NCBI GenBank assembly: GCA_965218695.1
Contig: OZ244651.1
Span: forward strand, 960,001 to 1,024,000
DNA length: 64,000 nucleotides
Source of the DNA: Nitrosopumilus sp.
GTDB lineage: Archaea > Thermoproteota > Nitrososphaeria > Nitrososphaerales > Nitrosopumilaceae
Reading direction: 5' to 3'
The position numbers and the translations under genes are program-made. Positions 1 through 63,252 of the stretch are shown here, piece by piece. The notes below the pieces were generated by a model. The model saw only the letters and a list, made by a program, of their open reading frames with translations. It was not told the origin of the DNA and searched no databases. Positions within the stretch are counted from its first letter, which is position 1. Each line of letters opens with the position of its first letter.

Positions 1-554
1 GGGTTGGGACGGCACGTTAGTGTGCGACGGCTGGACGGCGTACGGAAAATACCGCGTCCAGCGCTGCTGGTCGCACATAATACGCGAGGCCAGGGACATC
101 TGCAACCGCAATCCGGACTGCCCAGGCGCGCGCAACGTCCTGAAGCACCTGCGCATAATCTATGATTATGCCAGAAGGGCAAGCAGGAAACGCTCGCGCT
201 CTCTCCGGGACAACGCGTCTGCCATGCTGACGTCATGCATCGAAAAGATCGTTGCAAGGTACGCCGACGATCCAATATTGGAAAAATTCATGGTCAAGAT
301 CAGCAATGCTGGCAGCGACCTGTTCCGGTTCGTGCTGAACCCAAAGATCCCGCCTACAAACAATGCTGCAGAACGCGGGTTGCGCGAGATAGTCGTGCAC
401 AGAAAAATACGGGGCAGCATAAGGGCAGAGGAGACGATGACGTGGATGGCGAATTTCTTTTCATGTGTAATGACATGGAAAAACAAGAAATTGGATTACT
501 TGGCGGAGATTGCAAAATACGCCTAAAAATGAGTTAAACCACGTGAACACTTAC
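1..554 (+). mobile_element. IS66-family (single-ORF type) element, copy 1, 3' part only
   Basis: Same sequence as the 3' part of 2626-4151; C-terminal transposase (PTNNAAERGLR) ends at 526; right TIR ACGTGAACACTTAC ends at 554. Confidence 0.93.
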
Positions 555-682
555 CTTTTTTGTATGCTGCTTCGAGTTCTTCCCGTGTTACTTTGCTCAT
601 GCCGCGTTAGGCGACAATCTGATCTACATAGTTTCCGGTCCGAGGTGCTGAACTTGGAACGAATTTTCGCTTTTCACTATAG
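555..682 (-). mobile_element. IS630-family left-end remnant interrupted by IS66 copy 1
   Basis: Similar to 48281-48401 (end CACTATAG; MSKVTREELEAAYKK vs MDETKQEELEKAYKK). Confidence 0.7.
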
Positions 683-744
683 TTGCTGACCTCATACTTT
701 AATTGTTCTTAATTATTTATATAGTTTAATAAAAAATCTACCTC

Positions 745-1743
745 ATGAATAGTAAAGGACAAAAAACCCAAAGCGGATCTAAGAAAAAAGTAGTAGTAGC
801 AATTGGCGGAAATTCCATTTTGCAACAAGATCAAGTTGGCACATATGAAGAACAGCAAGAAAATATTAAAAAAATGGCAAAAAGTATTGCTTCTATTATT
901 CTAGGAAAACATCGATACGAAATTTCAGTTCTTATTCATGGTAATGGGCCTCAGGTGGGAAACCTCCTTCTTCAACAGGAATCGGCAACGAATGTTCCTA
1001 ATCAGCCGATGCACACAGTTATTGCAATGACACAAGGCCAAATCGGATACATGATACAACAAGCACTTCAAAACGAGTTTATAAAATTAAAAAAAAATAA
1101 AAGGGTTGTAAGTTTGATTACTCAAACAGTAGTCACCGAAAAAGATTCAAACCTTTCTAACGTCCCTCCAACTAAACCCATAGGTCCTTTTTTTACAGAG
1201 TCTGAAGCAAAAAAATTAGGAAATAGTACAAACCATGTCTATAAGAAGGTAAAACCTACTGGGAAAAAAACGTGGAGAAGGGTAGTTCCATCTCCAAAGC
1301 CACTTGAAATTGTAGAATTAGATATAGTGAAAAAATTGATTGATGATTCCTGCTTATTGATTGCTGGCGGCGGCGGCGGCATTCCTGTAAGTAAGAATTG
1401 TTCTGGTTTTGAGGCAGTAAACTGCCTGGTTGATAAGGATCATGCTGCATCTTTGCTTGCAAAATCTATTGGAGCTTCAGTACTTTTTTTTCTAACAGAC
1501 ATAGATAAAGTGAAATTGAATTATGGTAAACCAAATGAAAGCGATTTGGATACTATTACTGTAAAAACTGCAAAAAAGCTCCTAAAAGAGGGAGCATTTT
1601 TGGAGGGAAGTATGAAACCAAAGATACTAGCATCCTTAGATTTCTTAGAATCTGGGGGAGATATTGCTATTATCACATCTTTTGATCATGCCGTAGCAGC
1701 ATTAAATGGTAAAGCTGGTACAAAAATTACTTCAAAAGATTAA
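745..1743 (+). CDS. arcC: Carbamate kinase
   Basis: VVAIGGN, HGNGPQVG, TQGQIGY, PTKPIGPF, WRRVVPSPKP, GGGGIPV, DKD, GSMKPK motifs; AT-rich codon usage. Confidence 0.95.
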   Translation: MNSKGQKTQSGSKKKVVVAIGGNSILQQDQVGTYEEQQENIKKMAKSIASIILGKHRYEISVLIHGNGPQVGNLLLQQESATNVPNQPMHTVIAMTQGQIGYMIQQALQNEFIKLKKNKRVVSLITQTVVTEKDSNLSNVPPTKPIGPFFTESEAKKLGNSTNHVYKKVKPTGKKTWRRVVPSPKPLEIVELDIVKKLIDDSCLLIAGGGGGIPVSKNCSGFEAVNCLVDKDHAASLLAKSIGASVLFFLTDIDKVKLNYGKPNESDLDTITVKTAKKLLKEGAFLEGSMKPKILASLDFLESGGDIAIITSFDHAVAALNGKAGTKITSKD

Positions 1744-2602
1744 GTTTTGCTAATATTAAATTACCAAAGTCGCTATCAAAAACAAACACGGTTGCCATAA
1801 TCGCACCTATGCCTGCATCGATACCACTGGAATTGCCCACTTGAATAAGATCCATCAAAGGAAGTTTTGTTTCGTTCTCTCCTGACAATAGAAAACTAAC
1901 AAATACTTCGAGGGGCTCAATTACGATGCCATTCTGAGAGTAATCAATGAATTTTTTGCTAGCCCAGTTAGTGTTTCCCATGATAACAAATTTGGTGAGC
2001 TTGTGATTTGAGAATAAAAGAATTCTATTCAAGCAAAATAAGAAACCAACTATAAAATCGTCCCCTGAAGGAGTGAACCCGTTTCCCAAACCAACAATAC
2101 TTGAAAGCTGGTTTGACAGTTTTGCCAAATCATGTTTTTGTGTAGATTCTGATATTGACTTGATTGAATTTGCCAATTTATTGAAAAATGGTGAGCGACT
2201 ATCCAGAATGCTTCCTAAAGTGTCAAAAAGACGGAGTTCATCAACAGAAAGCAAAACTCTACTCTGCAAACCAGCTTTTATTTCATGATCTTTTGTTGTC
2301 AGATAAATTTTCGAGTTTTTGGTATTAAATCCGATAGTTCCCAACTTTAACCCGTTTGGTGTTCTGATGGCTTTTTTGTTGATACAATCTAATTTCAAAA
2401 AATTAACGGGTGAATTAAGATTCAGATTAATTGGAGCTTTTACATCCTTGGAAGTTAAACAGATTAAATCGTCATCTATCGTTTTCAAATAAACTGTATT
2501 TTCAAATACTTTTACAGTTTCGCCAATTGTTTCACCCTTAGAATACGATTCTATAAAATTTAATGCTGATTTTCCAACAGTGTTAATTTCAAAATCCAAC
2601 AC
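1727..2602 (-). CDS. DUF2877 / AllH (YlbF)-like protein
   Basis: Characteristic GLGNGFTPSGDDFIVG and GNSSGID motifs. Confidence 0.8.
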   Translation of the reverse strand: MLDFEINTVGKSALNFIESYSKGETIGETVKVFENTVYLKTIDDDLICLTSKDVKAPINLNLNSPVNFLKLDCINKKAIRTPNGLKLGTIGFNTKNSKIYLTTKDHEIKAGLQSRVLLSVDELRLFDTLGSILDSRSPFFNKLANSIKSISESTQKHDLAKLSNQLSSIVGLGNGFTPSGDDFIVGFLFCLNRILLFSNHKLTKFVIMGNTNWASKKFIDYSQNGIVIEPLEVFVSFLLSGENETKLPLMDLIQVGNSSGIDAGIGAIMATVFVFDSDFGNLILAKLNLLK

Positions 2603-2625
2603 AGTGGTTCACCAGTAAACTATTT

Positions 2626-4151
2626 GTAAGTGTTCACGTCGTGCCTAATTCAGTTCACTCTTGGGTAAATTTTGTGCAAACCACAGATCCAAATAGGATG
2701 GTAATCCAAACCCGATGTGAAAAGCCAGGCTGAACTCAAAAAGATGTACACGGATCTCAAGACTGAGAACATCAAGCTCAAGCAGACGATTGAGATGCAA
2801 GGGCAGATAATTGAGGAATTGAATCTGGCAGTTGCTGATCTTAAGCGCAGGCTGGTGCGGCATGACAATTACAACACCCCGTCATCACAAAAAAGGGGGC
2901 CCGGATGGCCTGACACAAAGGGAAAAGGCGACGAAAAGAATGCCTACAATAAATCCACAAAAGCCTCCCGGGATCAAAAGGACCGCGTGGATGCGGCCGG
3001 CAGCGGGAAGTCGCGCGGGGGGCAAAAAGGCCACATGGGCCGCACCCGCAAGCCAAAACCCACCGAGTTTGAGGAACACACCCCGGAGGCCTGCCCCGAA
3101 TGCGGCTCGGGTAGCCTTTCCATAGTGCAGTCAGAAAAACGCGACATTACCAGGGTGGAGCGCACGATAAAGGTCATCACCACGCGCCACACCATAAACA
3201 CGTGTCGCTGCTCCTGCGGTCTGGTGGACATCAAGCCCGAGACCGGCCTTCCAGACAAGGGCAGCTACGATCCGAGCATAACGACTGATGTTGCAGACGA
3301 TTACGTGTGTCGCATGCCGTTTAGGATGATCGCAGACCGCATGTCGCGGTACGGAATTACACTCTCCTCGGGCACGGCGCACAACATAATGCGCAGGCTG
3401 GGAACGTCGCTGGGCGCCCCTGCGGCAGCCATTGCCGCCATGATACGCAAGGCCAAGATACTGCACGCCGACGAGACATCGATTCACCTAAACGGCCGCA
3501 ACGTCTGGGTGTGGATACTGCACGATCCGCTGACCGGGCACGCGCTGTACGTGATACGGGACAGCCGGGGGGCAAAGGTTCTGAAAGAAGCGCTTGGGGG
3601 TTGGGACGGCACGTTAGTGTGCGACGGCTGGACGGCGTACGGAAAATACCGCGTCCAGCGCTGCTGGTCGCACATAATACGCGAGGCCAGGGACATCTGC
3701 AACCGCAATCCGGACTGCCCAGGCGCGCGCAACGTCCTGAAGCACCTGCGCATAATCTATGATTATGCCAGAAGGGCAAGCAGGAAACGCTCGCGCTCTC
3801 TCCGGGACAACGCGTCTGCCATGCTGACGTCATGCATCGAAAAGATCGTTGCAAGGTACGCCGACGATCCAATATTGGAAAAATTCATGGTCAAGATCAG
3901 CAATGCTGGCAGCGACCTGTTCCGGTTCGTGCTGAACCCAAAGATCCCGCCTACAAACAATGCTGCAGAACGCGGGTTGCGCGAGATAGTCGTGCACAGA
4001 AAAATACGGGGCAGCATAAGGGCAGAGGAGACGATGACGTGGATGGCGAATTTCTTTTCATGTGTAATGACATGGAAAAACAAGAAATTGGATTACTTGG
4101 CGGAGATTGCAAAATACGCCTAAAAATGAGTTAAACCACGTGAACACTTAC
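2626..4151 (+). mobile_element. IS66-family element, copy 2 (1526 bp), with 8-bp target duplication
   Basis: 14-bp TIR GTAAGTGTTCACGT/ACGTGAACACTTAC; TSD AACTATTT at 2618-2625 and 4152-4159. Confidence 0.95.
2717..4123 (+). CDS. IS66-family transposase (468 aa)
   Basis: N-terminal coiled coil, GGQKGH, CPECG zinc ribbon, HADET, CDG, QRCWSH, TNNAAER. Confidence 0.95.
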   Translation: MKSQAELKKMYTDLKTENIKLKQTIEMQGQIIEELNLAVADLKRRLVRHDNYNTPSSQKRGPGWPDTKGKGDEKNAYNKSTKASRDQKDRVDAAGSGKSRGGQKGHMGRTRKPKPTEFEEHTPEACPECGSGSLSIVQSEKRDITRVERTIKVITTRHTINTCRCSCGLVDIKPETGLPDKGSYDPSITTDVADDYVCRMPFRMIADRMSRYGITLSSGTAHNIMRRLGTSLGAPAAAIAAMIRKAKILHADETSIHLNGRNVWVWILHDPLTGHALYVIRDSRGAKVLKEALGGWDGTLVCDGWTAYGKYRVQRCWSHIIREARDICNRNPDCPGARNVLKHLRIIYDYARRASRKRSRSLRDNASAMLTSCIEKIVARYADDPILEKFMVKISNAGSDLFRFVLNPKIPPTNNAAERGLREIVVHRKIRGSIRAEETMTWMANFFSCVMTWKNKKLDYLAEIAKYA

Positions 4152-4153
4152 AA

Positions 4154-4552
4154 CTATTTTTTTATGCTCGCCATGTAGGCACGCCAACTACCATACTCGG
4201 AAATATCTTTGTGGCTTGATTCGGCTATATCTCTCGGGAATAGTACGCCCTTGACTACGCGGCCATTGTTCAATCTAACATCTCCAAAATATAGATCAGG
4301 CGGTTCTGTATTTTTTATTCGCTGAAAGATTTCATTGCTCATGTGGTACATTTCGCCGGCAACTGAAACGCCACCTTTCTCGACTTCAAACATGCCAGGA
4401 TGAACGTCGTCAATAGAATAAAGACGATAAATTGGAATGGTGTGAAATTCGCCAAGAAATTCTGCACCTTGCAAATTTTTGTGCAGCGACAATCCGCGCA
4501 TCAGTGTTCCATTGACAAATAATTCGTTTCTAGACTTTATTACCATCACCAC
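4154..4552 (-). CDS. Stand-alone allophanate hydrolase C-terminal-like domain (GGCT-like fold)
   Basis: LFVNGTLMRG, YRLYSI..HPGM, VAGEMY, GDVRL..G..VKG, DISEYGSWRAY resemble the C-domain of allophanate hydrolase (DIT.FGGWRAY). Confidence 0.75.
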   Translation of the reverse strand: MVMVIKSRNELFVNGTLMRGLSLHKNLQGAEFLGEFHTIPIYRLYSIDDVHPGMFEVEKGGVSVAGEMYHMSNEIFQRIKNTEPPDLYFGDVRLNNGRVVKGVLFPRDIAESSHKDISEYGSWRAYMASIKK

Positions 4553-5414
4553 AAGCAGTTTTTATCGCATTAATGAACCTTGAGGAGTCTGACACCCAAC
4601 CAAACACACCGCCTTGCATCTTAATCTGCTTTATTGCAGCTTCATAATTGCCAATATTAGTAGCAGCCGTACAATCTTTGAGGAGTATACACCAATATCC
4701 TATATCATTTGCCTCTCTCATTATTGCATGAACACAAACATCTGTGGTAACCCCTGTCATAATTAAGTGAGTTATGCCCAAGTTTTTTAAAGTTATAGAC
4801 AAATTACTATGACCAAATGCCCCCTTTGCAGATTTGTCTATTACAAATTCATTTTCAGCTGGGGCCAATTCATTTACAATGTCCCAGTTCTTTTGCCCCC
4901 TTACAAGAAGTTGTCCTTCTCCTCCTTCAGGCCTGTCCCCGATTCCAACACCCTGTCCTATTATCTTACTTCGTAGCAGTTTGTTGTATGGAAGATCAGC
5001 AAGATTTGGCATATGGCCCTCCCGTGTATGTACTACTTTGATATCAGTTCCTTTTCGTATCGTATTAAGTACATGCTTAATTGGTTTGATGGGAGTGGCA
5101 GTTAAAGAAAGATCATAGCCCATTATGTCTACATATCCTCCCTTAGCGCAAAAATCTACCTGCATATCTACAATCACAAATGCAGTTCTTGCAGAGTCAA
5201 GCTCTACATATGCTGTGTCACCAAAATTTGGGCAATCTTCAACTTCCATCTTTAGGAGTTTGCCTTTTATAGGTCCGTAAAGCCAGCTAGGAAACTTGAA
5301 GGTGCGAGTTTGTTGAAATGTTTCATAATCTTCCTGAACTCTAGCAAGTTTATCTTCTTTAGACAACTCAGAATCTTCTTTTACTTTGGTAGACTCCGAT
5401 AATAGATCCCTCAC
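4530..5414 (-). CDS. biuH: Biuret hydrolase (isochorismatase-like cysteine hydrolase) with N-terminal extension
   Basis: DMQVDFCAKGGYVDIMGYDLSL, HTREGH, DKSAKGAF, GVTTDVCV, MREAND, IKMQGGVFG; Asp-Lys-Cys triad and BiuH-type motifs. Confidence 0.85.
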   Translation of the reverse strand: MRDLLSESTKVKEDSELSKEDKLARVQEDYETFQQTRTFKFPSWLYGPIKGKLLKMEVEDCPNFGDTAYVELDSARTAFVIVDMQVDFCAKGGYVDIMGYDLSLTATPIKPIKHVLNTIRKGTDIKVVHTREGHMPNLADLPYNKLLRSKIIGQGVGIGDRPEGGEGQLLVRGQKNWDIVNELAPAENEFVIDKSAKGAFGHSNLSITLKNLGITHLIMTGVTTDVCVHAIMREANDIGYWCILLKDCTAATNIGNYEAAIKQIKMQGGVFGWVSDSSRFINAIKTACGDGNKV

Positions 5415-5537
5415 TTAACCTTCACCTGCAATTTAGTATAATATCTACTCTTCCAAACTATTTTTATTTTCATATTCATCCCGATTTGCTTGATATTAGT
5501 TTCAAAAACATGTTCTAAGGGGGATGGTCTTAATGAA

Positions 5538-5660
5538 CTATTTATTAACTGATGCACTAGTACCGCCTTTTGCAATTCCAACAGCTAGATATACTCCACA
5601 CCCACCTATCAAGCCACCGAAAATAGGAAACAGATTTGGTATATAAGTATTCTTGGAACG
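5538..5660 (-). pseudogene. Possible C-terminal TM remnant of a membrane protein truncated by an IS
   Basis: Frame reads RSKNTYIPNLFPIFGGLIGGCGVYLAVGIAKGGTSASVNK* and runs into the IS remnant at about 5661. Confidence 0.35.
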
Positions 5661-6380
5661 TGGGGGTTGTCACATAAATCATGTTGAGCGTATGATCGTG
5701 GCGTCATTGACTCATACCGGCTAAGGATCACAAAGTGTGCCCCCCCCCCTTCAATGAATCACAAGAGAAGGGCTAACTACTGGAATAGTTATCACAGGGC
5801 ACACACTACTGAGCGCAACTTTCGGATAAAAACTATCGTGTCTCTGGTCGGGAGGAACCCGCCGCCGGCAAAACAGGGCAGTGGTAAACGCGGGAGACCC
5901 CGAATACACTCGGCAGAGAAGATGGCCTGCGTATGTGTCATCATGATCTTCGAGGGCCTCACGTCCAGGAACGCGCAAAACTGCGTGTACCGGATGGTAC
6001 CTTCCGTGGCACGAGCCGGTTCCGGACCATTCAACGATAGCGCGATTCCTTGAGACGATTCCAATCTGGTGACTGGAACGAATCCTGAGGGAGGCTGCGC
6101 GTCAATGCATGGAGGCGGCAGGCACGACAGATTAGGACTTGACTGATTTACACGACATACGAGGTAAGCGGGAGCGGCCTGCGCGGCCGGGGGCTGAATG
6201 ACGAAAAAACGTCAAGATCGAGGCGCTCATGCACGAAGAGAGGCTGCACGCCGTCATAGAGGAGATTGCCCGGACGCTGTTTGCCAATTTTGCGCTGATC
6301 CTGCACGTGAGCGACGTCGGCGTGCTTCGCGCAGAAAAGTTTGCCTGACCTGGAATTTCAAAACCCTTAACATGCCTGCG
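5661..6380 (+). pseudogene. Degenerate IS5-like transposase remnant
   Basis: 5754-6053 YWNSY...GKRGRPRIHS...MACVC...GLTSRN type N-terminus, frameshifted; abrupt GC increase; right boundary approximate. Confidence 0.5.
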
Positions 6381-6895: not shown

Positions 6896-8203
6896 ATGAT
6901 CGATACCGAACTAGGGGAGTTACGCAGGACACATTATTCTGACGACCTGTCAGGCACCGACGACGGCCGCACGGTTACCGTCATGGGATGGATCCTGACG
7001 GTGCGGGGACATGGAAACATCAGTTTTGCCACCATACGCGACAAGAACGGCGATCTCTCGATAGTGGCAAAGAAGGGGGAATGCCCTGACGAGATCCGTG
7101 AGAAGATGTCGTCCCTCAGGGCGCACTCCTCTGTGGCAGTCACCGGCAGGATAAAGGCATCAGAGAAGGCCCCGAGCGGATTTGAGATAGTTCCGTCCGG
7201 TCTGAGGGTATTCTCAGAGGTGCAAAAGACCCCTCCGTTTGATCCGCTGGCGCGAACCGTAAAGAACATCGAGACCCGGCTGGAAGTCAGACCAATTGAT
7301 CTCAGGCGCATGCCACTCCAGCACATATTCCGTGTCCGAAGCAGCATACTTGCGTCCATCCGGGAATATCTGACCGGGGAGTCATTCACCGAGATCAACA
7401 CGCCAAAGATGATTGCCAGTGCCACGGAGGGCGGATCCGCGCTGTTTCCGATATTCTACTATGACAAGGAGGCGTTTCTGGCCCAGAGTCCGCAGCTGTA
7501 CAAGGAACAGCTTACCATGAGCTTTGAGAAGGTCTTTGAGATTGGTCCAATATTCAGGGCCGAGTCCTCAAGGACCAACAGACATCTTGCAGAGGCCATA
7601 TCCGTGGATCTGGAGGAGGCGTTTGTAGACTACAACGACGTCATGGACAGGATTGAAAGGATAATCAAGGCCTCCGTCGACACGGCTGCCTCCCACGCAG
7701 CAGAGAACCCGGACACGGGGTTTGCAGTCCCGGAGGTTCCGGAGGGCATTCCAAGATACACCTATGCCAAACTGCTGGAGATGATGCAGCAGGCAGGGGT
7801 GAAGACCCAGTGGGGCGATGACCTGTATCCGTCAGGCCTGGCCAAGATAGGCCTGGATGGATTCTACTTTATCACTGACTGGCCGCTTGGGCCCAAGCCG
7901 TTTTATGTCAAGGCAGGCAGAACCCCCGATACCTCCGAGTCCTTTGATCTGATGTTTGGCAGCCTGGAACTGTCGTCTGGCAGCACAAGGATCGAGAAGC
8001 GCGACGAGCTTGTGGAGAGGATGAAGAACAAGGGCATGGATCCGGACTCCTTTGAGTACCATCTTGCGGCATTTGACTATGGCGTCCCCCCGCATGCCGG
8101 ATGCGGAATCGGCCTTGAGAGGTTGATGATGGCAGTTACGGGCACGGAGAACATACGGGACACGACATTCTATCCGCGTGATGTGGACCGGCTGATGCCG
8201 TAG
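6896..8203 (+). CDS. aspS: Aspartate--tRNA(Asp/Asn) ligase, archaeal type
   Basis: OB-fold N-terminus, LAQSPQLYKE, FRAE..TNRHLAE, ELSSGS, GIGLERL; adjacent to gatCAB. Confidence 0.96.
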   Translation: MIDTELGELRRTHYSDDLSGTDDGRTVTVMGWILTVRGHGNISFATIRDKNGDLSIVAKKGECPDEIREKMSSLRAHSSVAVTGRIKASEKAPSGFEIVPSGLRVFSEVQKTPPFDPLARTVKNIETRLEVRPIDLRRMPLQHIFRVRSSILASIREYLTGESFTEINTPKMIASATEGGSALFPIFYYDKEAFLAQSPQLYKEQLTMSFEKVFEIGPIFRAESSRTNRHLAEAISVDLEEAFVDYNDVMDRIERIIKASVDTAASHAAENPDTGFAVPEVPEGIPRYTYAKLLEMMQQAGVKTQWGDDLYPSGLAKIGLDGFYFITDWPLGPKPFYVKAGRTPDTSESFDLMFGSLELSSGSTRIEKRDELVERMKNKGMDPDSFEYHLAAFDYGVPPHAGCGIGLERLMMAVTGTENIRDTTFYPRDVDRLMP

Positions 8204-8217
8204 GCGATGGGCGGGAC

Positions 8218-8484
8218 ATGGTTACACACGAGGAGATAAGGCTTGTTGCAGGGATGATGAAGATTGACATACAAGAGTATGACAAGTATGTGGACAAGGT
8301 CGAGTCGATGATAGGCTATTTTGACATACTGGACTCTGCAGGAGTAGGGGATGAGGAGATTACGGTGCGCGAGATTCCCGCCTTCGGCCTGCGCCAAGAC
8401 ACCCATGTCGCATCCGATCAGAGGCTGATTGACAGACTCAACAACTACAAGGGGGCCTACGTCAGGGCGCCAAAGATGTCCTGA
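8218..8484 (+). CDS. gatC: Asp/Glu-tRNA amidotransferase subunit C
   Basis: 88 aa between aspS and gatA; ends GAYVRAPKM. Confidence 0.85.
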   Translation: MVTHEEIRLVAGMMKIDIQEYDKYVDKVESMIGYFDILDSAGVGDEEITVREIPAFGLRQDTHVASDQRLIDRLNNYKGAYVRAPKMS

Positions 8485-9935
8485 TGAACCTGAGGATATC
8501 GGCCCTTGACTACGCCAGGGGCGTGCAAAACGGGGACATATCTGCAGAGGACTTTGCAGCAGCTACCCTTGAGAGGATATCTGACATTGACGGTACCCTG
8601 CACGCGTTCCTCTCGATTAATGACGATGCAGTCAAGAGGGCAAGGGACGTAGACCGCAGGGTGGCCGCAGGAGAGAAGGTAGGGGCATGCTGCGGGATGC
8701 CCGTATCTGTCAAGGACAACATATGCGTCCGGGACGGCAAAACCACATGTGCGTCGAGGATGCTTGAGGACTTTGTGGCCCCGTATGATGCCACGGTGGT
8801 CTCACGCCTGAGGGCGGCAGATGCGGTGTTTGTAGGCAAGACAAACCTAGACGAGTTTGCCATGGGACTGACAACGGAGTTTAGCGCGTTTGGGGCAAGC
8901 AGGAATCCGTGGAATGCAGAATTTGTCCCCGGAGGCTCCTCCGGGGGAAGCGCAGCATCCGTTGGCGCCTTCGAGTGTGTCGCATCGCTGGGTTCTGACA
9001 CGGGCGGCTCGGTAAGAAACCCGGCAAGCTTCTGCTCGGTGGTGGGATACAAGCCCACATACGGACTGGTCAGCAGGTTCGGCCTGATATCCTACGCCAA
9101 CAGCGTAGAGCAGATAGGCCCGCTGGCAAGGACTGTAAGCGACGCGGCATTCATGCTGGATATAATATCGGGCTCCGATCCCAACGACGACACTACGGTA
9201 GATGATGGCGGCAAAAATGCAGGGTACCTGGAAGGAATAGAGGCAGGCATAGAGGGCAAAAGGATAGGGATAGTCCGGGAGATGACATCAGACGACACGG
9301 ATCCCGCAGTGCTGTCTGCAACAAGGGACGCCGTTGCAAAACTTGAGGGACTCGGAGCCGTATGCGAGGAGGTCTCGCTGGACATGGTCAAGTATTCGGT
9401 TGCAGCCTACTACACCATAACCTCAGCCGAGGCCGGAAGCAACCTTGCCAGGTATGACAACCTGCGGTACGGCTATCCGTTTCCGACAGACGGCTACGAG
9501 TTCAACGCATATATCTCAAAGGCAAGGCAGAGGTTCGGCCCCGAGGTAATCCGCAGGCTGATCATCGGAGGGTTCGTCCCGTCTGCAGGGCACGCAGGAA
9601 GGTACTTTCTCAAGGCCCTCAAGGTCAAGAGCAGGCTGACCAAGGAGATCAACGAGGCGTTTCGGAGGCACGACCTGCTGATGGCGCCAACCGTCCCGAT
9701 ACTGCCGTTTAGGATCGGCGAGAAGATCGACGATCCTGTCTCCATGTTCTTGGTTGACATTAACACCGTGACTGCAAACCTCACAGGCAGGCCCGCCGTA
9801 TCCGTGCCGTTTGCAGTCTCGAACGGACTTCCCATAGGGATGCAGCTGATGGCAGATTCCATGCAGGACAGGATGCTGCTGCAGGCAGCACGTGCCCTGG
9901 AGCAGACAGTCAGCCTGCCGGAGGTGCCGATATGA
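8484..9935 (+). CDS. gatA: Asp/Glu-tRNA amidotransferase subunit A
   Basis: Amidase signature KDN, GKTNLDEFAMG, GGSSGGSAA, GSDTGGSVR. Confidence 0.96.
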   Translation: MNLRISALDYARGVQNGDISAEDFAAATLERISDIDGTLHAFLSINDDAVKRARDVDRRVAAGEKVGACCGMPVSVKDNICVRDGKTTCASRMLEDFVAPYDATVVSRLRAADAVFVGKTNLDEFAMGLTTEFSAFGASRNPWNAEFVPGGSSGGSAASVGAFECVASLGSDTGGSVRNPASFCSVVGYKPTYGLVSRFGLISYANSVEQIGPLARTVSDAAFMLDIISGSDPNDDTTVDDGGKNAGYLEGIEAGIEGKRIGIVREMTSDDTDPAVLSATRDAVAKLEGLGAVCEEVSLDMVKYSVAAYYTITSAEAGSNLARYDNLRYGYPFPTDGYEFNAYISKARQRFGPEVIRRLIIGGFVPSAGHAGRYFLKALKVKSRLTKEINEAFRRHDLLMAPTVPILPFRIGEKIDDPVSMFLVDINTVTANLTGRPAVSVPFAVSNGLPIGMQLMADSMQDRMLLQAARALEQTVSLPEVPI

Positions 9936-42772: not shown

Positions 42773-44298
42773 GTAAGTGTTCACGTCGTGCCTAATTCAG
42801 TTCACTCTTGGGTAAATTTTGTGCAAACCACAGATCCAAATAGGATGGTAATCCAAACCCAATGTGAAAAGCCAGGCTGAACTCAAAAAGATGTACACGG
42901 ATCTCAAGACTGAGAACATCAAGCTCAAGCAGACGATTGAGATGCAAGGGCAGATAATTGAGGAATTGAATCTGGCAGTTGCTGATCTTAAGCGCAGGCT
43001 GGTGCGGCATGACAATTACAACACCCCGTCATCACAAAAAAGGGGGCCCGGATGGCCTGACACAAAGGGAAAAGGCGACGAAAAGAATGCCTACAATAAA
43101 TCCACAAAAGCCTCCCGGGATCAAAAGGACCGCGTGGATGCGGCCGGCAGCGGGAAGTCGCGCGGGGGGCAAAAAGGCCACATGGGCCGCACCCGCAAGC
43201 CAAAACCCACCGAGTTTGAGGAACACACCCCGGAGGCCTGCCCCGAATGCGGCTCGGGTAGCCTTTCCATAGTGCAGTCAGAAAAACGCGACATTACCAG
43301 AGTGGAGCGCACGATAAAGGTCATCACCACGCGCCACACCATAAACACGTGTCGCTGCTCCTGCGGTCTGGTGGACATCAAGCCCGAGACCGGCCTTCCA
43401 GACAAGGGCAGCTACGATCCGAGCATAACGACTGATGTTGCAGACGATTACGTGTGTCGCATGCCGTTTAGGATGATCGCAGACCGCATGTCGCGGTACG
43501 GAATTACACTCTCCTCGGGCACGGCGCACAACATAATGCGCAGGCTGGGAACGTCGCTGGGCGCCCCTGCGGCAGCCATTGCCGCCATGATACGCAAGGC
43601 CAAGATACTGCACGCCGACGAGACATCGATTCACCTAAACGGCCGCAACGTCTGGGTGTGGATACTGCACGATCCGCTGACCGGGCACGCGCTGTACGTG
43701 ATACGGGACAGCCGGGGGGCAAAGGTTCTGAAAGAAGCGCTTGGGGGTTGGGACGGCACGTTAGTGTGCGACGGCTGGACGGCGTACGGAAAATACCGCG
43801 TCCAGCGCTGCTGGTCGCACATAATACGCGAGGCCAGGGACATCTGCAACCGCAATCCGGACTGCCCAGGCGCGCGCAACGTCCTGAAGCACCTGCGCAT
43901 AATCTATGATTATGCCAGAAGGGCAAGCAGGAAACGCTCGCGCTCTCTCCGGGACAACGCGTCTGCCATGCTGACGTCATGCATCGAAAAGATCGTTGCA
44001 AGGTACGCCGACGATCCAATATTGGAAAAATTCATGGTCAAGATCAGCAATGCTGGCAGCGACCTGTTCCGGTTCGTGCTGAACCCAAAGATCCCGCCTA
44101 CAAACAATGCTGCAGAACGCGGGTTGCGCGAGATAGTCGTGCACAGAAAAATACGGGGCAGCATAAGGGCAGAGGAGACGATGACGTGGATGGCGAATTT
44201 CTTTTCATGTGTAATGACATGGAAAAACAAGAAATTGGATTACTTGGCGGAGATTGCAAAATACGCCTAAAAATGAGTTAAACCACGTGAACACTTAC
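42773..44298 (+). mobile_element. IS66-family element, copy 3; transposase 42864-44270
   Basis: 1526 bp, same TIRs; flanks CATCGTTC / GAAAATTA do not form a TSD. Confidence 0.95.
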
Positions 44299-61726: not shown

Positions 61727-63252
61727 GTAAGTGTTCACGTGGTTTAACTCATTTTTAGGCGTATTTTGCAATCTCCGCCAAGTAATCCAATTTCTTGTTT
61801 TTCCATGTCATTACACATGAAAAGAAATTCGCCATCCACGTCATCGTCTCCTCTGCCCTTATGCTGCCCCGTATTTTTCTGTGCACGACTATCTCGCGCA
61901 ACCCGCGTTCTGCAGCATTGTTTGTAGGCGGGATCTTTGGGTTCAGCACGAACCGGAACAGGTCGCTGCCAGCATTGCTGATCTTGACCATGAATTTTTC
62001 CAATATTGGATCGTCGGCGTACCTTGCAACGATCTTTTCGATGCATGACGTCAGCATGGCAGACGCGTTGTCCCGGAGAGAGCGCGAGCGTTTCCTGCTT
62101 GCCCTTCTGGCATAATCATAGATTATGCGCAGGTGCTTCAGGACGTTGCGCGCGCCTGGGCAGTCCGGATTGCGGTTGCAGATGTCCCTGGCCTCGCGTA
62201 TTATGTGCGACCAGCAGCGCTGGACGCGGTATTTTCCGTACGCCGTCCAGCCGTCGCACACTAACGTGCCGTCCCAACCCCCAAGCGCTTCTTTCAGAAC
62301 CTTTGCCCCCCGGCTGTCCCGTATCACGTACAGCGCGTGCCCGGTCAGCGGATCGTGCAGTATCCACACCCAGACGTTGCGGCCGTTTAGGTGAATCGAT
62401 GTCTCGTCGGCGTGCAGTATCTTGGCCTTGCGTATCATGGCGGCAATGGCTGCCGCAGGGGCGCCCAGCGACGTTCCCAGCCTGCGCATTATGTTGTGCG
62501 CCGTGCCCGAGGAGAGTGTAATTCCGTACCGCGACATGCGGTCTGCGATCATCCTAAACGGCATGCGACACACGTAATCGTCTGCAACATCAGTCGTTAT
62601 GCTCGGATCGTAGCTGCCCTTGTCTGGAAGGCCGGTCTCGGGCTTGATGTCCACCAGACCGCAGGAGCAGCGACACGTGTTTATGGTGTGGCGCGTGGTG
62701 ATGACCTTTATCGTGCGCTCCACCCTGGTAATGTCGCGTTTTTCTGACTGCACTATGGAAAGGCTACCCGAGCCGCATTCGGGGCAGGCCTCCGGGGTGT
62801 GTTCCTCAAACTCGGTGGGTTTTGGCTTGCGGGTGCGGCCCATGTGGCCTTTTTGCCCCCCGCGCGACTTCCCGCTGCCGGCCGCATCCACGCGGTCCTT
62901 TTGATCCCGGGAGGCTTTTGTGGATTTATTGTAGGCATTCTTTTCGTCGCCTTTTCCCTTTGTGTCAGGCCATCCGGGCCCCCTTTTTTGTGATGACGGG
63001 GTGTTGTAATTGTCATGCCGCACCAGCCTGCGCTTAAGATCAGCAACTGCCAGATTCAATTCCTCAATTATCTGCCCTTGCATCTCAATCGTCTGCTTGA
63101 GCTTGATGTTCTCAGTCTTGAGATCCGTGTACATCTTTTTGAGTTCAGCCTGGCTTTTCACATCGGGTTTGGATTACCATCCTATTTGGATCTGTGGTTT
63201 GCACAAAATTTACCCAAGAGTGAACTGAATTAGGCACGACGTGAACACTTAC
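61727..63252 (-). mobile_element. IS66-family element, copy 4; transposase 61755-63161
   Basis: 1526 bp, same TIRs; flanks GTGCAAAC / AAAATAAC do not form a TSD. Confidence 0.95.

Follow-up and report, generated by a model that had tools for sequence, protein, structure and literature searches.

The stretch of DNA analysed here (64,000 nucleotides, called the window below) is C1:960001-1024000 of the 2.63-Mb genome G000 of an ammonia-oxidising archaeon, 99.99% complete with 1.45% contamination. Its first 6148 positions are the 3' end of an island of 32.8 kb, C1:933319-966148, which begins 26.7 kb 5' of the window. Taking the evidence together, we think it probable that this island was acquired from marine Nitrosopumilaceae of low G+C content (GC), and that it is a gene set predicted to make ammonia and some ATP from biuret-like ureides. 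An earlier sequence-only reading of the window had recognised a part of the island, positions 683-5660, as a horizontally acquired AT-rich block for biuret catabolism.

Is the island an insertion, and where are its borders? Homology to the closest relatives, two 'Nitrosopumilus sp.' chromosomes (G426 and G427), extends as far as C1:933318 and begins again at C1:966149; the break at the right edge falls at window 6148/6149. At the same site, 810 bp separate the two flanks in G426 and 12 bp in G427. The gene on the left flank (C1:932839-933390) belongs to the Sbt_1 family of Na+-dependent bicarbonate transporters and is cut to profile positions 3-113 of 308, with about 172 homologous codons, while the same gene is complete in G426 (406 amino acids, aa) and absent from G427. 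The composition also deviates, the cargo genes having a GC of 0.34-0.43 in a genome with 0.528 ± 0.043 per 1-kb window; GC lies below 0.40 in only 27 of the 2624 1-kb windows of the genome, and four of these 27 are inside the island. A BiuH orthologue occurs in 2 of 400 other genomes of the family and in 0 of 98 genomes of the same genus, and AllF in 0 of 400 sampled family genomes. Judged by this deviant GC, the empty syntenic site in G426 and G427 and the patchy occurrence, the island is horizontally acquired and not core, as had been proposed from the sequence; the same counts speak against ubiquitous, vertically inherited genes of ammonia-oxidising archaea, one of the possibilities that could have overturned that proposal. 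The host is, by its marker genes, a high-GC Nitrosopumilaceae ammonia oxidiser, in agreement with the earlier assignment: the AspRS encoded beside the island shares 95% and 88% identity with those of the two relatives, and amoA and the urease alpha subunit gene were found in its genome. No tRNA was found in loci L001, L002 and L003, in a scan that left out C1:935861-940000, and no integrase was found among the scanned open reading frames (ORFs) of the island, only transposases of insertion sequences (IS). A tRNA-linked integrative element is unsupported, with neither tRNA nor integrase in the scanned regions and ORFs.

The AT-rich cargo comprises 11 ORFs, all intact and full length compared with their relatives: a binding protein, an ATPase, two permeases, an amidohydrolase, AllF, AllG, AllH, carbamate kinase, AH_C and BiuH. 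At least 11 copies or fragments of IS66 and IS630 are found within the same 32.8 kb, every one of them between genes, and the AT-rich upstream genes are kept apart by these GC-rich elements. The features of the island and of its right flank are as follows.

C1:933458-934708, 5' part of the island: AllG (PF06545, 261 bits)
C1:956108-957805: AllF/FdrA with CoA_binding and Ligase_CoA domains (FdrA profile NF004760, 365.5 bits, below the cut-off of 433)
Island, 5' of the window: BMP-family substrate-binding protein with a CFI-box C-terminus
Island, 5' of the window: ABC ATPase and two permeases
Island, 5' of the window: amidohydrolase, TRZ/ATZ / deoxyadenosine-deaminase-like, 462 aa, below all equivalog cut-offs
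Window 1-554, plus strand: 3' part of an IS66 copy (full copy C1:959030-960554), 99.9% identical to the copy at window 2627-4151
Window 555-682, minus strand: 5' fragment of an IS630 copy (blastn, C1:960555-960682 against IS630 query positions 137-264)
Window 745-1743, plus strand: carbamate kinase of AllK/ArcC type, 332 aa, GC 0.358, PF00696
Window 1727-2602, minus strand: AllH (DUF2877), homologue of an oxamate carbamoyltransferase subunit, 291 aa, GC 0.339
Window 2618-2625: left copy of an 8-bp target-site duplication, AACTATTT
Window 2626-4151, plus strand: complete IS66-family element, GC 0.546, transposase ORF 2717-4123 (468 aa)
Window 4152-4159: right copy of the duplication, AACTATTT, including the AH_C stop codon at 4154-4156
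Window 4154-4552, minus strand: stand-alone allophanate-hydrolase C-domain protein (AH_C, GGACT fold), 132 aa
Window 4530-5414, minus strand: BiuH-type cysteine hydrolase of the isochorismatase family, 294 aa
Window 5415-5661: AT-rich non-coding end of the cargo, 5' of BiuH
Window 5662-6156: GC-rich 495-bp repeat without a family match, right edge of the island
Window 6896-9935: core operon aspS-gatC-gatA, directly right of the island

Profile matches agree with the earlier naming and placing of the four cargo genes in the window, including the convergent orientation of the kinase, which overlaps AllH by 17 nt. AllH scores 61.8 bits on PF11392 (cut-off 25), and the kinase 305.5 bits on NF009007, passing its cut-off of 266, and 344 on TIGR00746, below 358.25. 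Since AllF and AllG, the two partners that the sequence-only reading had named as worth looking for, are encoded in the island further upstream, DUF2877 and the kinase are identified as the AllH and AllK of an AllFGH/AllK set; their identities stand, and only their role as loose additions to a biuret module has to be given up. The description of the block also needs revision. It is AT-rich and has IS sequence at its left boundary, as described, namely an IS66 inside an IS630; its right edge is the 495-bp repeat, which has no recognisable transposase, and it is not one continuous unit, a complete GC-rich IS66 standing in its middle.

What happened to the cargo after its arrival can be read from the IS elements. 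A blastn comparison of IS66 (1525 bp) with C1 gives 42 matches, of which more than 30 span the whole element at 99.9-100% identity, and IS66 occupies 1-554, 2626-4151, 42774-44298 and 61727-63251 of the window. The copy at 2626-4151, whose transposase matches PF03050 and scores 233.8 bits on NF033517 (cut-off 180), lies 2 nt past the AH_C stop codon and 24 nt ahead of the AllH start. The overlap of AH_C with the end of BiuH by 23 nt, together with AllH about 20 nt after AH_C before the IS66 came in, implies an ancestral BiuH-AH_C-AllH transcription unit, which this copy splits. The copy at C1:959030-960554, with the 8-bp target duplication CTTTTTTG, sits inside an IS630 copy whose second piece is C1:958042-959028, and the 8-nt overlap of the two pieces matches the duplication. 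This nest lies 63 nt 5' of the kinase and separates AllF from it; AllG is now 22 kb from AllF. Of the four IS66 copies in the island, three are framed by clean 8-bp duplications, the surrounding DNA being AT-rich or that of an IS630 copy, and the fourth (C1:936180) abuts an IS66 fragment and has no duplication. Insertion of the host's own IS66 and IS630 followed the arrival of the cargo and was confined to the spaces between genes. The IS630 family has 32 matches on C1 at 89-100% identity, IS66 has recently expanded, and so IS-rich a genome is unusual among free-living Nitrosopumilus-type archaea.

There is a further question, from which organisms the cargo came. The nearest relatives of most cargo genes are in marine Nitrosopumilaceae-like contigs and in Nitrososphaeraceae, not in bacteria. 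Marine metagenome contigs with a GC of 0.35-0.42 encode BiuH, AllG, AllF, kinase, AllH and AH_C at 74-86% identity to G000 (by gene, 73-76% for the kinase and 77-85% for AllH), in the compact order BiuH(-) AllG(+) permease(-) permease(-) ATPase(-) binding protein(-) AllF(+) kinase(+) AllH(-) AH_C(-), relative to which the order in G000 is rearranged. The genes flanking this marine cluster are 53-91% identical and syntenic to G000 core genes at C1:1865422-1880503; the contigs are therefore Nitrosopumilaceae-like, with the cluster at a different chromosomal site. In a FastTree tree of 56 BiuH-like sequences, G000, a marine group I genome and the marine contigs form one clade with a support of 1.0, and its link to Nitrososphaeraceae is weak (0.295). 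Transfer within the family from low-GC marine Nitrosopumilaceae is the most likely origin suggested by these comparisons. Nitrososphaeraceae fit poorly as donors. BiuH is common in them at 63-72% identity, and several loci are syntenic, with BiuH followed by permeases, ATPase and binding protein and then by AllF, AllH, kinase and AllG; their AllF, AllH and kinase are only 27-46% identical to those of G000 and their AllG 58-62%, compared with 74-86% in the marine contigs. A linked set of BiuH-like gene, AllF/G/H, kinase and ABC transporter was found in Nitrososphaeraceae, Chloroflexia and Alphaproteobacteria loci. The segment with the transporter and the amidohydrolase has its nearest relatives in metagenomes, at 90-95%, and may have come from a second source.

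Close relatives of AllF are found only in protein and metagenome collections; there are many in metagenomes at 80-93% identity, one of them from a Tara mesopelagic sample. A single-protein search of species-representative genomes returned no relative of AllF, and a search of the same genomes with a 10-sequence alignment returned four Caldarchaeales-type loci only, at 35-38%. Neither AllF nor the kinase was found in the other BiuH-bearing genomes G168, G280 and G038, and a search for AH_C in G041, a marine group I genome, gave no match, although the cluster there (L012) sits at a contig end and may continue beyond it. The compact cluster is common in low-GC marine Nitrosopumilaceae-like contigs, one from a Tara mesopelagic sample included, yet it is present in almost none of the sampled genomes of the family, which suggests a trait of the flexible genome that is missed by binning.

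The assignment of BiuH carries the prediction of a ureide substrate. The protein matches PF00857 at 115 bits, and its best family by far is NF050097, biuret amidohydrolase, with 274.1 bits compared with 114 for the RutB profile. Its matches to solved structures rank in the same way: BiuH 6AZO at 2.3e-70 and 6XJM at 2e-66, TrtA 6XIX at 9e-42 and RutB at 1.8e-22, or 227-240 bits for BiuH, 142-146 for TrtA and 83 for RutB. The catalytic triad given for BiuH in passages of PMC5806882, Asp36-Lys142-Cys175, is present as D83, K194 and C227 of the window protein when aligned to 6AZO/6AZS/5BK6, and it is invariant in 24 relatives. Conserved in the alignment, by BiuH numbering, are D36, Q38, F41, Y47, Y53, K142, K145, T171, D173, V174, C175, Q215 and V218. 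These include all residues to which passages of PMC5806882 and PMC7948467 ascribe contact with biuret (K145, T171, Q215, F41, Y47, V174) and the four positions said there to discriminate BiuH from TrtA (Y47, Y53, D173, V218), every one identical to the BiuH state; other positions conserved in the family are changed (T151 to S, I170 to V, T179 to I). Biuret is thus the candidate substrate pointed to by these residues. Residues 1-70 form an N-terminal extension of about 70 aa, which is shared by a 'long form' of BiuH in archaea, Chloroflexi and haloarchaea and is missing from the bacterial BiuH that has been characterised and, in Alphaproteobacteria, from the BiuH-like genes adjoining AH_C.

AH_C is the less expected member of the set. 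It matches PF21986 at 113 bits, and it covers only positions 440-563, the C-terminal 124, of the allophanate hydrolase model TIGR02713. Among proteins of solved structure it matches PDB 5C5Z (E 2.4e-21) and the C-domain of the allophanate hydrolase 4GYR, and with 132 aa it is close in length to its relatives (126 aa). The N-terminal amidase-signature domain of allophanate hydrolase is neither fused to it nor encoded elsewhere in the island. A search of the whole genome with PF01425 found no AtzF-type amidase, GatA (window 8484-9935) being the sole match, so the allophanate hydrolase that the sequence-only reading had thought worth seeking was not met with, although urease, sought for the same purpose, is present as its alpha subunit. 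The cyanuric acid hydrolase profile PF09663 had no match in the host genome, nor had it any in the control genomes. Is AH_C then a constant partner? Among the 13 marine contigs with sequence beyond AllH, 12 have AH_C directly beside AllH, whose other neighbour there is the kinase; in bacteria a BiuH-like gene adjoins AH_C in 8 of 12 loci, and at least one of AllF, AllG and kinase is present at 9 of the 12. Neither AH_C nor the amidohydrolase was found near BiuH in any of 53 BiuH loci. On L188, a marine contig with the compact cluster, 1.6 kb beyond AllH have no AH_C match, so that even the marine lineage does not have AH_C throughout. The entry 5C5Z is a stand-alone AH_C homologue of 137 aa deposited as 'Glutamyl-tRNA amidotransferase', a name that looks like a mis-annotation. 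A complex prediction for BiuH with AH_C gave a score of 0.00 and a mark of 0.32, in a run where controls were not folded, and counts neither for nor against a complex.

How might these proteins work together? Every substrate and reaction in the following scheme is our proposal, built on the observed gene identities, borders, IS history, distribution and synteny. The ABC system would take up a small ureide, and BiuH would convert biuret, or a near analogue, to allophanate and NH3. With no AtzF-type amidase in the genome, allophanate would go through AllFGH, a carbamoyltransferase that might phosphorolyse allophanate and/or oxalurate from oxidised purines to carbamoyl phosphate, and carbamate kinase would turn carbamoyl phosphate into ATP, NH3 and CO2. 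AH_C might take carboxylated N-intermediates, of N-carboxycarbamate or allophanate type, and remove their carboxyl group, and urea, if formed, would pass to the host urease as a side route. The C-domain of allophanate hydrolase is said, after Fan et al. 2013 and Lin & St Maurice 2013, to turn N-carboxycarbamate into carbamate. The net result would be additional ammonia for ammonia oxidation and a little substrate-level ATP. A bolder form of the scheme, to which we give little credence, supposes that in several bacterial phyla and in marine ammonia-oxidising archaea allophanate hydrolase is replaced by a non-homologous pair of proteins, a BiuH-type hydrolase and stand-alone AH_C, and that AllFGH is an allophanate (or biuret) carbamoyltransferase and not an oxalurate-specific one, so that polyureides would yield carbamoyl phosphate, ATP and three NH3. 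If that were true, mesopelagic nitrifiers would have an unrecognised source of nitrogen and energy that moves between lineages by islands such as this one.

Could the island be an artefact or a relic? An assembly chimera, in which AT-rich contigs of a low-GC archaeon were joined at IS repeats, would account for AT-rich pieces flanked by identical IS66 copies, for a cargo resembling low-GC marine archaea and for the lack of a single short-read contig record spanning the stretch. We consider it very improbable. Matching 8-bp duplications lie on both sides of three of the four island copies of IS66, and the IS66 and IS630 inside the cargo are exactly of host types. The depth and junction data are from Logan contigs, not from reads, and no single record covers the whole stretch; depth in runs X1 and X2 is 8.2-8.6 for the cargo contigs and 9.4 and 8.4 for the core flank, with 219-438 for IS66, and contigs link the IS66 ends to AllH and to AH_C/BiuH. 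In run X5, from another study, a contig of 352 bp joins 2617 to 4152 with 8 shared letters, an empty site free of IS66, and a loose end at 6149 coincides with the island edge. Target duplications, empty-site contig and equal depth, together with the completeness and low contamination of the genome, thus speak against the chimeric join at IS66 repeats by which the sequence-only reading could have been undone. The IS-free variant of run X5 is at the same time compatible with a decaying passenger, that is, a single acquisition whose operons were uncoupled by IS bombardment and which no longer supports ureide catabolism in spite of open ORFs. The number of IS copies and fragments points that way, as do the IS66 parting AllH from AH_C/BiuH, the IS630/IS66 nest parting AllF from the kinase and the rearranged gene order. 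We find decay doubtful all the same, with all 11 cargo ORFs full length and every IS intergenic, which fits either selection or very recent IS activity. The kinase also retains a TATA-like box, TTTATATA at window 716-723 as read from the sequence, about 26 nt 5' of its ATG, which may be its promoter element.

Another question is whether the same genes act on another substrate. They might salvage products of oxidised purines or of the allantoin branch (oxalurate, triuret, carboxybiuret or parabanate-type compounds), with the BiuH-like enzyme not acting on free biuret and AllFGH/AllK acting on oxalurate as in E. coli. According to PMC11326118, oxalurate is the only substrate on which AllFGH/AllK are characterised, and PMC12625717, in its discussion of BiuH, leaves the substrate among triuret, carboxybiuret and biuret. 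The BMP-family binding protein and the TRZ/ATZ / deoxyadenosine-deaminase-like amidohydrolase suggest purine-like compounds, and BiuH scores below its equivalog cut-off. This alternative is in our judgement unlikely: the residues for hydrogen bonding and packing of biuret are all kept, the BiuH state is present at the four positions where BiuH and TrtA differ, the structure scores favour BiuH over TrtA and RutB, and no allantoin gene was seen among the island ORFs scanned.

The reading of the island as an acquired and working source of ammonia from biuret-like ureides has several points to its disadvantage. BiuH reaches 274.1 bits where the equivalog cut-off of NF050097 is 370, and AllF (365.5 against 433) and the kinase on TIGR00746 (344 against 358) are below theirs too. 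To our knowledge, biuret is not an established marine metabolite. The action of AllFGH on allophanate is drawn from chemical analogy only, and a role for AH_C without an amidase domain is a proposal suggested by its sequence. The IS insertions broke ancestral transcription units, by which the gene set may be poorly expressed or decaying. The island transporter genes share only 40-49% identity with their counterparts on the marine contigs, so the island is possibly a mosaic of more than one source, and with AllF in none of the 400 family genomes despite family-like marine contigs, the donor lineage is deduced from flanking genes only.

Some observations concern neighbouring features. The 495-bp repeat at the right edge has further copies at C1:223198-223683 (94.7%) and C1:237163-237625 (89%) and a partial one at C1:881009-881119. 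Two inverted copies bracket C1:223.7-237.2 kb, the genes of which are those found on the flanks of BiuH/AllG in G041, the marine group I genome of L012. Within the repeat, a poly-C tract of 10 bases (window 5740-5749) is 3 or 5 bases shorter in contigs of run X7. Other AT-rich 1-kb windows, with a GC of 0.29-0.37, are located at C1:573001-576000, C1:564001, C1:903001 and C9:34001-37000, and may be further acquired islands.

Which organic nitrogen compounds feed archaeal nitrification is an ecological question, for which urea and cyanate are established answers. The gene set of the island was believed from the sequence alone to be undescribed in ammonia-oxidising archaea, and this belief has to be withdrawn: PMC12625717 (mSystems, October 2025) reports biuH, allFGH, allK and bmpA-nupABC in these archaea, with biuH in 27 of 554 species genomes; among the 27 are three Nitrosopumilaceae and Nitrososphaera viennensis. 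Because that work already reports the gene set, the core idea is no longer new. The same pathways as here are proposed in that work, with the substrate of BiuH left open. Its clusters, from ammonia-oxidising archaea and comammox, have the same gene families in the same neighbourhood as the island, and its three biuH-bearing Nitrosopumilaceae agree with 3 of 401 here, G000 counted. Compared with them, the cluster of G000 is an AT-rich insertion in a high-GC genome, fragmented by IS of the host; where that work describes a 'gatA-like' amidase beside biuH, G000 has instead stand-alone AH_C and an amidohydrolase of TRZ/ATZ-like type. The main text of PMC12625717, taken apart from its supplements, has no mention of 'C-terminal', 'cyclotransferase' or 'horizontal'; AH_C, a conserved extra partner, is absent from it. 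This partner and the transfer and IS history may be the new elements. Here a biuH/allFGHK module is caught moving between ammonia-oxidising lineages, with borders, empty site and likely donor group defined in a high-quality genome, and the locus supplies the exact genes for a biochemical test.

Other known systems are matched in part. In E. coli, AllFGH is the oxamic transcarbamylase, for which all three genes are required, and allK, encoding the catabolic carbamate kinase, is in the same operon (PMC11326118, PMC9843812); in PMC11525543 the name fdrAB is used for formate dehydrogenase only. All four proteins have homologues in the island (AllG by PF06545, AllH by PF11392, an FdrA-type AllF and the kinase). 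The E. coli genes serve an anaerobically growing enterobacterium, whereas the present host is an aerobic archaeal nitrifier, in which the four genes are non-contiguous and scattered over 29 kb. None of the allantoin genes allB/C/D/E was seen near them in the island ORFs scanned; the four are tied to BiuH and AH_C instead, and are assigned a substrate by inference only. With BiuH of Rhizobium leguminosarum and of the Herbaspirillum TrtA-TrtB-BiuH-AtzF pathway, as described in parts of PMC5806882 and PMC7948467, the protein of G000 shares the triad and every listed biuret contact, and BiuH is its best structural-sequence match; it differs by the N-terminal extension and by its score under the NCBIfam equivalog cut-off. 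No TrtA, TrtB or AtzF partner of the Herbaspirillum triuret pathway was found, GatA being the only amidase-family gene of the genome. Compared with the two-domain allophanate hydrolases (AtzF, DUR1,2; 4GYR) and the stand-alone 5C5Z, AH_C of G000 matches the C-terminal domain only; it has no amidase domain of its own and, in the loci compared, is always paired with an isochorismatase-family hydrolase and/or AllH.

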